Origin: a virus
Taxonomy: Duplodnaviria > Heunggongvirae > Uroviricota > Caudoviricetes
Virus record (IMG/VR): IMGVR_UViG_2563366965_000001
Location: 1-41,751 of that record
Length of the DNA: 41,751 nucleotides
Reading direction: 5' to 3' (one strand)
The position numbers and the translations under genes are program-made. Positions 1 to 41,751 of the stretch are shown here, in pieces; within the stretch, counting starts at the first letter, position 1, and each line of letters opens with the position of its first letter. The notes beneath the pieces were generated by a model. The model was not told the DNA's origin and did not search any database. It worked only from the letters and a program-made list of their open reading frames with translations.

Positions 1-573
1 ATGTTTTGCGAAGAAAAAGTAGCTCAAATGGCTGCATACCTACTTCTTAAGAGAGGTGGGCGCATGGCATATCTGAAATTGATGAAGCTGCTCTATCTGT
101 CTAACCGCCAGTCGATTTTGAAGCATGGCAGGATGATCGGCGAAGATAGCCTTTACTCTATGAAATTTGGACCAGTCATGTCGAATACGCTGAACTTGAT
201 TCGCGGTAAGGCTGAAGGCATTGGTGACTACTGGTACAACTTGATAGAGACGAACGGGCATAATGTATCGTTGCGTTCAGATCCGAGGGAAATGGATGCA
301 GACGAGGTCTTTGATGAATTGAGTCGTGCAGATATCCGGATTTTAGATGAAATCTATTCTCGGTATGGGCATATGAACCGATTTGATCTCGCAAATATGA
401 CGCATTTAGAAAGCGTTTGTCCAGAGTGGCACGATCCTGGCAATTCTCGTAAGCCTATAGACCTGAAAGAAATGCTGATCAGTGAGGGTAAAAGCGAGGA
501 TGAGGCTAATCGCATAATTGGCAAAATGGAAGAATCTCAGAAACTTAAGGAATTTTCTTTGCAATTATCATGA
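1..573 (+). CDS. Panacea (DUF4065)-domain protein, antitoxin-like (PanA/SocA/GepA-type); may be 5'-partial because the ORF opens at base 1
   Basis: Translation shows AYLKLMKLLYLSN ... MKFGPVMSN, the KLxKLLY / W-or-F-GPV pattern I associate with DUF4065; stop overlaps the next start (ATGA at 570-573). Confidence 0.55.
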   Translation: MFCEEKVAQMAAYLLLKRGGRMAYLKLMKLLYLSNRQSILKHGRMIGEDSLYSMKFGPVMSNTLNLIRGKAEGIGDYWYNLIETNGHNVSLRSDPREMDADEVFDELSRADIRILDEIYSRYGHMNRFDLANMTHLESVCPEWHDPGNSRKPIDLKEMLISEGKSEDEANRIIGKMEESQKLKEFSLQLS

Positions 574-989
574 CGGATTATCAGCCATACAGGAAAGGAA
601 CTGTGCTTGCACCAACTGGACCATGCAATCATCTTCATGTGATTTGTAATGATCCTGTTTATTACCCCGTTAACGATTGTTATTGTGTTTTAGTTGTTAA
701 TATTTCTAGTATCAAGGATGGTGTCCCCCACGATCCGTCTTGCGTCTTGAATTCTGGTGATCATCGCTTTATCAAGCATCCAAGTTATGTTGTTTACGCT
801 GAAGCTATAATTTGGCGAGTGGATAACATGGTTAGAAAGCAGCGATCGGGTGAGATTTCTGTTCATGATGATATGCCAGAAGCTACATTCAATAGAATTC
901 TGGACGGTTTTGATATCTCTGATGAAGTTACGCCAAAGAACCTTAAATTTAAAAATAAATATTGCGTATCATCTATTGATGATGAGTAA
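570..989 (+). CDS. Small protein translationally coupled to the Panacea gene; putative toxin partner, possibly MazF/PemK/Kid-like fold (tentative)
   Basis: ATGA start/stop overlap with upstream gene; AT-rich; segments CVLVVNISS and SYVVYAEAIIWRVDNMVRK resemble the beta-strand/WR pattern of MazF/Kid toxins by eye only. Confidence 0.35.
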   Translation: MTDYQPYRKGTVLAPTGPCNHLHVICNDPVYYPVNDCYCVLVVNISSIKDGVPHDPSCVLNSGDHRFIKHPSYVVYAEAIIWRVDNMVRKQRSGEISVHDDMPEATFNRILDGFDISDEVTPKNLKFKNKYCVSSIDDE

Positions 990-1028
990 ACAACAGGAAT
1001 TGTTTCGGTATAACTTCTGGAGTTTTCT

Positions 1029-1202
1029 ATGGAAGATCAAAAAGCAACCAAGCCACAGGTTAAGTTCGACACAATGAAAGCATTCGTAGGTATGGGTGCT
1101 GCTGTTGAAGTTCTGATGAAGGCTGCTCCTAATGCGTTCACTCACGCTACTGTCTCTGGTAAAGAGCAGCAGGGTAAGCTTCGTCGTCTCAAAGCAGCAT
1201 GA
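1029..1202 (+). CDS. Hypothetical small protein (57 aa), absent from the supplied ORF track (below its length cut-off)
   Basis: ATG at 1029 preceded by GGAG 8 nt upstream; in-frame to TGA at 1200-1202; followed by a hairpin/T-run. Confidence 0.3.
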   Translation: MEDQKATKPQVKFDTMKAFVGMGAAVEVLMKAAPNAFTHATVSGKEQQGKLRRLKAA

Positions 1203-1225
1203 TCATAGCTGGTGCTTTTTGAAAA

Positions 1226-1249
1226 CCCGCCTTCAGGCGAGTTTTTTCT
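1226..1249. terminator. Candidate bidirectional intrinsic terminator between convergent genes
   Basis: CCCGCC-TTCA-GGCG stem followed by TTTTTT on the plus strand; weaker T-run on the minus strand. Confidence 0.4.
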
Positions 1250-1531
1250 TTAGTGATTTTCTTTGCCCTTCTGTTTGACTGTTCTGACCTGTTCCCACTC
1301 GATACGTCCTTCTTCTCGCCTTTTGTCTATGTATTCCGCAAGATCCTGAATATTGATGCAACGTTTTGCTTTTTGTGATGTGCCGATGCGATATGTTGGA
1401 ACGGGCAACTTACAAGCGTTTGCTTTTGCTTCTGCCGTGGCTGGACTCATACCAAAGTACTTTTGGCTAACTGCTGAGAGTTCAATGTTTGGGGTATTGA
1501 ATTCAGCCATCAGTAAAAACAAGGTGTTCAT
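1250..1531 (-). CDS. PrtN-like (pyocin-activator family) small DNA-binding regulator; could act as excisionase-like/early regulator
   Basis: MNTLFLLMAEF... and IQDLAEYIDKRREEG resemble the PrtN family; start set at the internal ATG (1531) because GGAGAA lies 5 nt upstream. Confidence 0.55.
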   Translation of the reverse strand: MNTLFLLMAEFNTPNIELSAVSQKYFGMSPATAEAKANACKLPVPTYRIGTSQKAKRCINIQDLAEYIDKRREEGRIEWEQVRTVKQKGKENH

Positions 1532-1567
1532 AATTTTCTCCATCAAAACCGGCTGCACCCGGGAAAA

Positions 1568-38841: not shown

Positions 38842-39090
38842 TTAGTGAACAAACCACTCGTCAGCAGATTCCCAGGTATCTTTCAGAGTCTCCTGAACAA
38901 AAGTTTTTGCAGAATCCTTATCTGCGGTGCGTGTAACAGAAAGGCCATCATTGCTGGTGGCTTTTACTAACACCTCAACATCGTCATAACGCTTACTGAT
39001 GCGTCGGGTTAATTCTTCCTTTAACGCATCCACAGCACCGGTTGGCATTTTAGTCATTTTTTCTTTGGCTATGCAGATTTCAATACGCAT
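38842..39090 (-). CDS. dinI: DinI-like DNA-damage-inducible protein
   Basis: [11 protein letters not shown]...[11 protein letters not shown] ... [15 protein letters not shown] closely parallels E. coli DinI; GGAGGG RBS; two LexA boxes upstream. Confidence 0.8.
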
Positions 39091-39151: not shown

Positions 39152-40249
39152 TCAAGAGGTCTTATTTCTGCTCCTTTGGAGCTCTTCAAAACGATTATGT
39201 AAAGATTTCGGATACAGTTCGGTATATACCTGCCATAGCACGTTTAATGAACGATGCCCTGTAACTTGGGCGACTTCCTCAATACTAAAACCAGCCTCAA
39301 ATAAGCGACTTGCCCCTTCTCTACGCAAATCATGGTATCGCAGATCCTTAATACCTAATTTGCTTCTTACTCTCTGAAATCCCGCAGTAACAGAAGTGCT
39401 GTTATATGGAAAAATGAATTCCGATTTTTGGGGCTGTCGTTGGACGATATCCCAGGCTTCCCCAAGCAAGGCTACTTTCATGTGGTTGCCTTCCTTTTTG
39501 CGTGGATCTTTCCTGTCTCTTACGAGTATAGATTTTTGTTCCTGGTCGAGATCTTCCCATCTTAACCGGCATACTTCTCCGATTCGCATACAGGACCATA
39601 CAGAAAATTTGAGGATATCAACGAACGGAATTTTTGAGCATTTATGAGTAGATCGTTGTTGAAGGCCTGCAATGAGCATGTCCAGTTCATCAGATGCTGG
39701 TCTACGATTACGACGGTTTGATTTACCAATCAAACCAAGTTTAAGTAGATATGGGCGAGCGCTTTTCGCCGGGTTTGATGTGTAATTAATTCCGTATACA
39801 GGTTTGGCCGCATCCAGAACACTGCCAAGATAACTAACATCGTGGCTGACTGTTGCAGGACCTGCACCAGCGTTGTTTCTTAGCCTGCAATGTTCAATTA
39901 CGTCATTTTCTGTCAGTTCAGATAGTTTGATCGCGGAGATGTCACTATCCATAAGCAGTTCCAGCACATATCTTTTAGTACGGCCTGCTTTACCTCCGGC
40001 ATTTGGGTCATTTAAATATTTGTGTAGTAAGTCACGGACTGTAAGTCCGTCAACTGCATTTGATGATGGAATACCATATAGATCTAATTCCATCACTTTC
40101 TGTGTGCCCCATGTTTTGGCATGAGCATGTTTAGGGAATGTTTTGCTTTCCCTGTAAGTGATAACACCTTTTTCTTTGATAATCACATTACAGCGATAGC
40201 GTGGTGTGCCATCGGATTTTAGTCGTTTCTCTATGTTATAGTACGCCAT
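39152..40249 (-). CDS. int: Tyrosine-type phage integrase (dusA-associated class by position)
   Basis: 365 aa; C-terminal catalytic box (R...HDLRR...LLGH-like...Y); GAGG RBS; start 88 bp from the dusA start. Confidence 0.9.
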   Translation of the reverse strand: MAYYNIEKRLKSDGTPRYRCNVIIKEKGVITYRESKTFPKHAHAKTWGTQKVMELDLYGIPSSNAVDGLTVRDLLHKYLNDPNAGGKAGRTKRYVLELLMDSDISAIKLSELTENDVIEHCRLRNNAGAGPATVSHDVSYLGSVLDAAKPVYGINYTSNPAKSARPYLLKLGLIGKSNRRNRRPASDELDMLIAGLQQRSTHKCSKIPFVDILKFSVWSCMRIGEVCRLRWEDLDQEQKSILVRDRKDPRKKEGNHMKVALLGEAWDIVQRQPQKSEFIFPYNSTSVTAGFQRVRSKLGIKDLRYHDLRREGASRLFEAGFSIEEVAQVTGHRSLNVLWQVYTELYPKSLHNRFEELQRSRNKTS

Positions 40250-40337: not shown

Positions 40338-41375
40338 ATGCACGATAATCATGAAACACAAAAAATTAATCAAACCAGCGTGATGCCTGAAAAAACTGGT
40401 GTTTACTGGAATTCTCGGTTTAGCATTGCTCCTATGCTCGACTGGACGGACAGACATTGCCGCTATTTCTTGCGTCTGCTTTCCCGCAATACGTTGCTGT
40501 ATACTGAAATGGTAACTACAGGGGCGATTATTCACGGTAAAGGTGATTACCTGGCGTATAGTGAAGAAGAACATCCGGTAGCGTTGCAACTCGGCGGTAG
40601 CGATCCGGCGGCGCTGGCGCAGTGTGCGAAGCTGGCAGAAGCGCGTGGATATGATGAGATCAACCTGAATGTCGGCTGCCCGTCTGACCGGGTGCAGAAC
40701 GGCATGTTTGGTGCGTGTCTGATGGGTAATGCGCAGCTGGTTGCCGACTGCGTGAAAGCGATGCGCGATGTGGTGTCGATTCCGGTGACGGTGAAAACGC
40801 GTATTGGCATCGACGACCAGGACAGCTATGAATTTCTCTGCGATTTCATCAACACCGTTTCCGGCAAAGGCGAGTGTGAGATGTTCATCATCCATGCACG
40901 TAAAGCCTGGCTTTCGGGGTTAAGTCCGAAAGAAAACCGTGAGATCCCGCCGCTCGATTATCCGCGTGTGTATCAACTGAAGCGTGACTTTCCGCATCTG
41001 ACAATGTCGATTAACGGTGGTATCAAGTCGCTGGAAGAGGCCAAAGCACACCTGCAACATATGGATGGCGTGATGGTCGGGCGCGAGGCGTATCAGAATC
41101 CGGGTATTCTGGCGGCGGTAGACCGGGAGATCTTTGGTTCCTCGGATATCGATGCCGATCCGGTGGCGGTAGTGCGCGCCATGTATCCGTACATTGAGCG
41201 TGAACTCAGCCAGGGGACGTATCTCGGTCATATTACCCGGCATATGTTGGGCTTGTTCCAGGGTATTCCTGGCGCGCGGCAGTGGCGGCGTTATTTAAGT
41301 GAAAATGCCCATAAAGCGGGTGCAGACATTAATGTGCTGGAACACGCGCTCAAACTGGTGGCGGATAAGCGTTAA
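40338..41375 (+). CDS. dusA: tRNA-dihydrouridine(20/20a) synthase DusA; the first 25-30 codons are AT-rich and probably supplied by the prophage
   Basis: Near-identity to E. coli DusA as recalled ([59 protein letters not shown]...); true start codon may be internal. Confidence 0.9.
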
Positions 41376-41457
41376 CTTTTCACCAAAAAATAGTCAAATT
41401 CACCACGCCCTGCGCACCGTCGCGGGGCGTTTTGCTGTTAAATCAATAGATTATTTT

Positions 41458-41473
41458 TGGCATGATTCTTGTA
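41458..41473 (+). promoter_or_regulatory. Candidate sigma54 promoter of pspG (TGGCAT-N5-TTGTA)
   Basis: GG and GT elements spaced as -24/-12; pspG is known to be sigma54/PspF-dependent; about 35 nt upstream of the ATG. Confidence 0.4.
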
Positions 41474-41508
41474 ATGCCAGCAAGAGATTTCATATTTGGG
41501 AGTGCATC

Positions 41509-41751
41509 ATGCTGGAACTACTTTTTGTGATTGGCTTTTTTGTCATGCTGATGGTCACCGGCGTTTCGTTGCTGGGCATTATCGCCGCGCTGGTTGTGGC
41601 GACGGCCATTATGTTCCTCGGCGGTATGCTGGCATTGATGATTAAGTTGCTGCCGTGGTTACTACTGGCGATTGCGGTGGTGTGGGTTATTAAGGCGATT
41701 AAAGCACCAAAAGTGCCGAAATATCAGCGTTATGACCGCTGGCGTTACTAA
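41509..41751 (+). CDS. pspG: Phage shock protein G (host membrane protein)
   Basis: 80 aa, matches E. coli PspG as recalled (MLELLFV...KVPKYQRYDRWRY); GGGAG RBS. Confidence 0.85.
   Translation: MLELLFVIGFFVMLMVTGVSLLGIIAALVVATAIMFLGGMLALMIKLLPWLLLAIAVVWVIKAIKAPKVPKYQRYDRWRY

Follow-up and report, generated by a model that had tools for sequence, protein, structure and literature searches.

Panacea-domain antitoxins (PanA) and the toxins with which they are paired (PanT) were defined by Kurata et al. (2022, PNAS; PMC8832971). One experimentally validated pair, that of Pseudomonas moraviensis LMG 24280 (WP_083354365.1/WP_083201923.1), belongs to toxin cluster T6: its PanT is toxic, is neutralised by PanA, forms a stable PanA:PanT complex in pull-downs, specifically inhibits incorporation of 35S-Met, and is similar to EndoA/PemK/MazF as judged by HHpred (PMC8832971). 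The subject of this analysis is a related gene pair at the left end of a 41,751-nucleotide stretch of DNA (positions 1 to 41,751 of IMG/VR virus record IMGVR_UViG_2563366965_000001; the whole of this stretch is referred to as the window). Bases 1-989, which hold the two open reading frames (ORFs) panA (ORF1) and panT (ORF2), are probably a type II toxin-antitoxin (TA) module belonging to the PanAT class, the accessory cargo of a lambdoid prophage integrated at dusA. Earlier publications describe the class as well as the toxin cluster and how it acts, so the finding is largely one of known biology rather than of a new kind of system.

The pair of the window and that of P. moraviensis are organised alike. 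PanA is encoded first and has no N-terminal domain, and a toxin of ~130 residues is encoded second, with an overlap of -1 or -4 in the P. moraviensis and other T6 pairs. The P. moraviensis PanT, like ORF2, has no CDD or Pfam match, yet displays structural similarity to MazF/PemK/EndoA. The N-terminus of P. moraviensis PanA (MIFSEQKVAQ, as restored by Kurata et al.) resembles the MFCEEKVAQ of the window PanA. The two differ in setting: the P. moraviensis pair was flagged 'NotPhage' by Kurata et al., whereas that of the window is prophage-borne in E. coli.

The MazEF and Kid-Kis (PemIK) modules share with the window pair an antitoxin gene in first position, translational coupling and inhibition of translation by the toxin (demonstrated for the T6 relative of the window pair). 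In contrast, the MazEF and Kid-Kis antitoxins have the AbrB/MazE or Kis fold, while the antitoxin of the window is a Panacea protein without a DNA-binding domain. SocA, of the type VI SocAB system of Caulobacter crescentus, has its Pfam domain in common with the window PanA, the name of PF13274 being derived from SocA. SocA is, however, a ClpXP adaptor that brings about degradation of SocB, a DnaN-binding inhibitor of replication, instead of sequestering it. Unlike SocAB, the window pair has a toxin with a predicted MazF-type fold, and a related PanAT pair forms a stable complex. A second E. coli pair, from Shiga toxin-producing E. coli (STEC) O31 (WP_000287252.1/WP_000019185.1; Kurata et al. 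2022), is likewise a toxin neutralised by its PanA, but that toxin is a small membrane-depolarising peptide and so differs in cluster and in mechanism.

The panA-panT pair

ORF1 matches the Pfam profile PF13274 (SocA_Panacea) with 70.9 bits against a gathering cut-off of 25.7 (E 2.2e-19); the match covers residues 27-137 of the protein and positions 1-109 of the 113 of the profile. The original prediction had assigned the gene to Panacea/DUF4065 on its KLMKLLYL...KFGPV pattern, which is indeed present, and the profile search bears the assignment out. ORF1 also matches phrog_1281, and its RefSeq name is 'Panacea domain-containing protein'. Orthology with SocA itself was considered and rejected: the NCBIfam equivalog NF047745 scores only 14.4 bits, against a cut-off of 190. 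Mapping of conservation over 43 PanA homologues identifies a motif, TH..CPEW.DP.GSS.PI, at the end of the Panacea core, and beyond it a C-terminal tail of ~40 residues that is variable in sequence and constant in presence.

The earlier suggestion that ORF1 might extend upstream of base 1 does not hold. Three close relatives have the same 573-bp gene in their annotation: phage Lys8385Vzw (99.8% identity over 1-1300), phage SKA5 (99.0%) and an E. coli chromosome whose identity over bases 1-1000 is 100%. In these an in-frame stop precedes the ATG with no other start between the two, and GAGG lies 8 nt before the ATG, so ORF1 is complete at base 1 rather than truncated by the window edge. (A 60-aa ORF further upstream, L001 4786-4968, was considered as a regulator and set aside, being conserved only in near-identical E. 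coli prophages.)

The positions, the 4-nt overlap and the AT-richness of ORF2 are as originally described. Its GC content of 0.381 (0.30 at third codon positions) compares with a mean of 0.512 for the window and falls in the lowest 0.7% of 420-bp windows. The stop of panA and the start of panT are interleaved (TCA TGA / ATG ACG), and panT has no well-spaced Shine-Dalgarno sequence; an AAGGAA lies ~18 nt upstream, which is too distant to serve. Among 43 homologous panA-panT pairs the -4 overlap recurs in 20, the others being spaced by -1 to +33 nt. This arrangement, on its sequence, indicates translational coupling of panT to panA.

The RefSeq/PGAP start of the toxin gene (WP_014640052.1, 128 aa; L016 4603-4989) is GTG 603, 11 codons late. 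The 11 residues that it skips (MTDYQPYRKGT) contain P6, which is conserved in the family, and G10, which is invariant. Conservation of these two residues, together with the recurrence of the ATGA overlap noted above, makes ATG 570 the likely true start. The gene bears the label 'hypothetical protein' both in RefSeq and in all the phage records examined.

The two genes are found together throughout. Counting one genome per species, a PanA homologue lies directly upstream of the ORF2 relative, and on the same strand, in 42 of 42 genomes (E 1e-112 to 3e-19); the sole locus left out of the count is a 277-bp contig. The originally proposed pairing is general in these genomes, which span Gamma- to Alphaproteobacteria (Enterobacterales, Methylococcales, Beggiatoaceae, Rhodobacterales and Sphingomonadales). 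Identities of PanA and PanT to the proteins of the window pair are correlated (r = 0.95; r = 0.90 over all 903 pairs), implying that the two genes diverge together as one unit. Across the Proteobacteria panA-panT is inherited as an obligate unit.

Searched against Pfam, NCBIfam and PADLOC, ORF2 has no match, and the only PHROG that it matches is unannotated; assignment at the level of sequence to PemK/MazF, CcdB or any other family of Pfam, NCBIfam or PADLOC was rejected accordingly. Relatives found by a word-indexed search fall into 62 clusters, every one of them 'hypothetical', and an exhaustive profile search puts the family at 2,653 representatives at 50% identity (E<=1e-3).

What places ORF2 in cluster T6 is its homology to members listed there. 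Dataset S1 of PMC8832971 assigns to T6 the pairs of Pantoea septica LMG 5345 (spacing -4), Yersiniaceae bacterium 2016Iso4 (-1) and Proteus vulgaris (-4), along with Pluralibacter, Photorhabdus, Methyloprofundus, Beggiatoa and several Alphaproteobacteria. The toxin of P. septica LMG 5345 (L022, identical to P0035) is 56% identical to ORF2 (E 2e-48), that of Chimaeribacter 2016-Iso4 (L021) 55% and that of Proteus (P0017) 63%; the genomes and pair spacings of the first two are those of the T6 rows of Dataset S1. By this sequence homology ORF2 is a T6 member. Assignment to the T1 'mRNase' cluster (E. coli MOD1, Salmonella phage Emek) was examined and rejected: Emek is not a tblastn match of ORF2, and it is in T6 that Dataset S1 places the relatives of ORF2 from Enterobacterales.

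The closest pairs outside Escherichia are those of Kosakonia sp. S29 (L017) and a Pluralibacter metagenome-assembled genome (L018), with toxin identities of 86-87%. These two toxins, together with P0002, P0004 and P0007, have a C-terminal extension ending in ...(Q)LTGS. A short match to the dusA att region lies upstream, pointing to a dusA-integrated prophage of a similar kind. One collection of proteins clustered at 90% identity puts PanA and PanT, which are unrelated, into a single cluster (541 members, 53-232 aa); a gene call running across both ORFs might explain this.

A MazF/CcdB-type SH3-like barrel is confidently predicted for PanT. The AlphaFold2 model, built on a 30-sequence alignment, has a mean predicted local distance difference test (pLDDT) score of 90.7 and a predicted template modelling (pTM) score of 0.85, and consists of a five-strand barrel followed by three helices. 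All of its top 50 Foldseek matches in the PDB are MazF proteins, the best with E 7e-4 and a probability of ~1.0, and in a viral structure library the top matches are proteins called 'PemK-like' or 'Endoribonuclease'. In three independent searches the best structural matches are MazF, Kid and CcdB. The original likening of ORF2 to MazF/Kid is upheld at the level of the fold and fails at the level of sequence, where the PemK profile finds nothing. With 139 residues as against ~110, PanT has two C-terminal helices more than MazF and Kid.

Conservation in the family does not follow the MazF pattern. H21 is the sole invariant residue in 71 diverse members, and L22, D55, C58, G63, H65, F67, S72, Y76, G113 and S117 are each conserved in at least 90% of them. 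D55, C58 and H65 sit in a long conserved loop without regular secondary structure (residues 48-71), a feature that MazF and Kid lack. Catalysis by MazF depends on an Arg (R29 of E. coli MazF), and a Thr/Ser (T52) is also part of the catalytic site. No Arg is conserved in the PanT family, in contrast to MazF and Kid. In the secondary-structure register of the model, H21 opens strand 2, which would be the place of the catalytic Arg in MazF, and an S/T pair (VNISS/VNITT in the family; S46/S47 here) closes strand 3, which would be the place of the Thr. The WR motif that had contributed to the original proposal (W82 R83) is conserved only in members from the Enterobacterales and is absent from the Vibrio and Shewanella homologues, and thus is not a family feature.

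Carriage of the pair in prophages and islands

The right end of the window carries dinI, a tyrosine integrase gene, an intact dusA and pspG, and the window is therefore chromosomal DNA with a dusA-integrating lambdoid prophage that runs into host dusA and pspG; the earlier picture of a circular phage genome is superseded. In the E. coli chromosome mentioned above (100% identity over bases 1-1000), a 5' fragment of dusA (attL) lies ~250 bp to the left of panA. The pair is present in 208 of 5,426 complete E. coli genomes (~4%), in every case on the chromosome, and at least 80% of bases 1-1000 is covered in 206 of the 208. Among the matches listed is one partial copy (H18), which extends over bases 1-717 only, so that panA is kept and panT truncated.

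Enterobacteria phage mEp460 has its integrase and dusA-derived att region in common with the prophage of the window. The two part immediately beyond this att sequence, ~235 bp before the panA ATG, and homology resumes downstream of panT. Between these points mEp460 holds an unrelated gene specifying the 177-aa gp23 (YP_007112097.1; L007 2284-2817), which has no Pfam match. Because gp23 is carried in the same slot, the pair and its own upstream DNA (~190-235 bp, located outside the window) form an exchangeable cassette of ~1.25 kb. The part of the cassette in the window (1-1015) has a GC content of 0.409, compared with 0.512 for the window. This exchange bears out the original prediction that the pair is cargo located beside the attachment site.

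Elsewhere the pair occupies other positions. In Shewanella it resides in an island with a P4-like integrase and AlpA, in Vibrio in a P2-like prophage beside an S24 repressor, in Proteus at the tail-fibre end of prophages beside Abi_2 or an S8 peptidase, and in lambdoid prophages of Pantoea between a cI-like repressor and an N-like antiterminator (L012-L015 3435-4405). The cI-N interval is the one that holds rexAB in phage lambda. The pair is also found in Pseudomonas phage Sirocco, Klebsiella phage ST13-OXA48phi12.5 and Yersinia phage YeP1. The panAT cassette moves between accessory (cargo) slots of unrelated temperate phages and islands. Three of these slots (the Pantoea cI-N interval and those next to the S24 repressor of the Vibrio prophage and next to Abi_2 in Proteus) are of a kind expected to be expressed in the lysogen; locations in cargo slots, exchange as a cassette and low GC content all fit an accessory module that is expressed in lysogens.

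Two observations were made in passing on these loci. In Sirocco (OR683410.1; L060 1501-1863) the panT homologue, which is 48% identical over 87% of ORF2 and directly downstream of a gene for a PanA-sized protein of 185 aa, is unannotated; the record has in its place a 44-aa ORF that lies within it on the opposite strand. In Proteus and Providencia (L008-L011 947-2984) the content of the slot beyond the tail-fibre gene varies from strain to strain, comprising an S8 peptidase with either UPF0167 or Abi_2, which suggests that the slot beside the pair is a variable hotspot for accessory or defence genes.

Mechanism, role and alternatives

By analogy with the P. moraviensis member of T6, free PanT would stop growth by blocking protein synthesis, and PanA would neutralise it by binding it directly in a stable complex. 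Ernits et al. (2023; PMC10440598) showed that Panacea can either neutralise a toxin itself or provide the platform for a terminal element that does so. If fold is a guide to activity, PanT may be a metal-independent endoribonuclease acting on mRNA, tRNA or rRNA, with a putative active site at the position of the MazF site, built from H21, S46/S47 and the D55/C58/H65 loop of the model. Translational coupling, to judge from gene order, would hold PanT at or below the level of PanA. More speculatively, the pair in a lysogen might stabilise the prophage, or might abort superinfection when PanA is inactivated or titrated.

A number of findings weigh against a PanAT module of this kind. At the level of sequence, ORF2 has no match to PemK_toxin (PF02452) at E<=1, and only one of the 71 family members matches that profile (E 0.11); the family profile has no match among PDB sequences, and its alignment by hhalign with the single sequences of EndoA and Kid is insignificant (probability <1%). 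Neither Arg nor Lys reaches 90% conservation at any position across the 71 members. The isoelectric point (pI) of PanT is 5.6 here, with a family median of 6.7, so that the protein is not basic, which is unusual for an RNA-binding toxin. On the side of the antitoxin, the absence of a DNA-binding domain leaves autoregulation unexplained, and a promoter scan upstream of panA in Lys8385Vzw yields one weak 9/12 site, without enrichment over shuffled sequence. Neither PanA nor PanT nor the product of the adjacent ORF3 matches a defence model of PADLOC-DB v2 at E<=1. ORF2 is connected with the validated toxin WP_083201923.1 by their common cluster and not by a direct alignment, and that toxin is not among the named matches listed in the ORF2 family profile search. 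Finally, several predicted PanTs of other clusters are not toxic in E. coli, and these include the T1 'mRNase' candidates of E. coli MOD1 (prophage) and Salmonella phage Emek (PMC8832971).

It is quite possible, though not the favoured view, that the principal role of the pair is anti-phage defence of the lysogen by abortive infection, in which an invading phage would inactivate or trigger the PanA sensor, freeing PanT to shut off translation before the phage cycle is completed. This concerns the role of the pair rather than its mechanism, and is compatible with the TA module preferred here. The consistent placement of the pair in cargo slots of temperate phages and islands (att-adjacent, cI-N, beside Abi_2 or S8 peptidase, beside a repressor) and its exchange as a cassette are in keeping with defence. 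Panacea has also been proposed to be a sensor of TA-activating cues, and TA systems have been linked to defence (Ernits et al. 2023; PMC10440598). On the other hand, location is circumstantial, since TA modules can simply stabilise the element that carries them; the lack of PADLOC-DB v2 matches to either protein also counts against defence, and a search of the literature found no report of phage defence by a PanAT pair of cluster T6.

An alternative view of the toxin is that PanT shares only the scaffold of MazF/CcdB and is not an mRNA interferase: the His and the Asp/Cys/His loop would then form another catalytic or metal site directed at a component of translation, or PanT would poison gyrase in the manner of CcdB. 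The missing PemK signal, the acidic to neutral pI and the conservation of H21, D55, C58 and H65 in place of an Arg speak for this, and the non-canonical residues and non-basic pI do leave room for a different chemistry on a MazF scaffold. Kid and other RNases of the MazF fold also use His and Asp in catalysis, however, MazF-type RNases rank above CcdB in every structural search, and the validated T6 toxin inhibits translation specifically and not replication. Taken alone, this alternative is unlikely. Slightly less so, but still doubtful, is its combination with the defence role, in which PanT is a distinct enzyme on a MazF scaffold and the prophage PanAT an abortive-infection system whose Panacea domain senses an invading phage; here the putative His/Asp/Cys/His site would replace the Arg/Thr dyad and give a target or chemistry unlike that of mRNA interferases. 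If this were true, the recurrent rexAB-like and att-adjacent slots would mark a widespread and unrecognised prophage defence module, present in ~4% of complete E. coli genomes and missing from PADLOC-DB v2, the defence database searched.

That the pair is not a TA system in E. coli, PanT being non-toxic and serving some other conserved function of mobile elements, is very improbable: several predicted PanAT pairs, T1 MOD1 and Emek included, are indeed non-toxic there (PMC8832971), but these fall in a different cluster and Emek is unrelated by tblastn, the cluster of ORF2 has a toxic and neutralisable member, and the gene order, 4-nt overlap, strict co-occurrence and toxin-type fold are typical of type II TA modules.

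For the preferred reading, a PanAT-class TA module carried as prophage cargo, the practical consequences are two. Recognition of PanT as the partner of PanA improves annotation in ~4% of complete E. coli genomes and in many temperate phages. In addition, a T6 PanAT pair native to E. coli could serve to probe the triggers of Panacea and phage defence by prophage-borne PanAT.

Prophage setting and neighbouring genes

Features of the left and right ends of the window are collected in Table 1.

Table 1. Features at the two ends of the window (positions are those of the window)
Feature	Position	Strand	Remarks
panA (ORF1)	1-573	+	190 aa; Panacea/DUF4065 antitoxin without N-terminal domain (PF13274)
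panT (ORF2)	570-989	+	139 aa; putative toxin of the T6 cluster (Kurata et al. 2022); predicted MazF/CcdB-type fold
ATGA overlap	570-573	+	panA stop/panT start, from sequence
panAT cargo cassette, part in window	1-1015	+	homology to mEp460 resumes at 1016
ORF3	1029-1202	+	57 aa; lambdoid backbone gene; phrog_2741, full-length match, E 1e-34
Hairpin with T-run	1221-1246		between convergent ORF3 and xis-like gene
xis-like gene	1250-1558	-	PrtN/pyocin-activator family (PF11112, E 4e-23); convergent with ORF3
dinI	38842-39090	-	right end of window
Tyrosine integrase gene	39152-40249	-	right end of window
dusA, intact	40338-41375	+	prophage-host junction
pspG	within ORF 41299-41751		prophage-host junction

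ORF3, which the original prediction had noted as following the pair, is a gene of the phage backbone. In mEp460 it occurs at 97% nucleotide identity, beside a different cargo gene and without the pair, and in the loci of Shewanella, Vibrio, Proteus and Pantoea the pair has no ORF3 at its side. A third TA component encoded by ORF3 was rejected on these grounds. ORF3 is possibly co-transcribed with panAT. The GGAG ribosome-binding site ascribed to it is in place, 8 nt before the ATG.

The hairpin beyond ORF3 (-12.4 kcal/mol, z -1.5) has one mismatch in its stem; its counterpart in Lys8385Vzw is a perfect 11-bp stem. Its proposed identity as a terminator agrees with the T-run and with this perfect counterpart, but the stem of the window is imperfect and a terminator scan of the window did not call it. 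It is probably a terminator weakened here by the mismatch.

The convergent gene on the other side of the hairpin probably specifies the prophage Xis, its mEp460 counterpart being annotated as an excisionase. In mEp460, gp23 occupies exactly the slot of panAT, between the dusA-type att and the homologue of ORF3, and is itself a candidate for an alternative cargo or defence gene.

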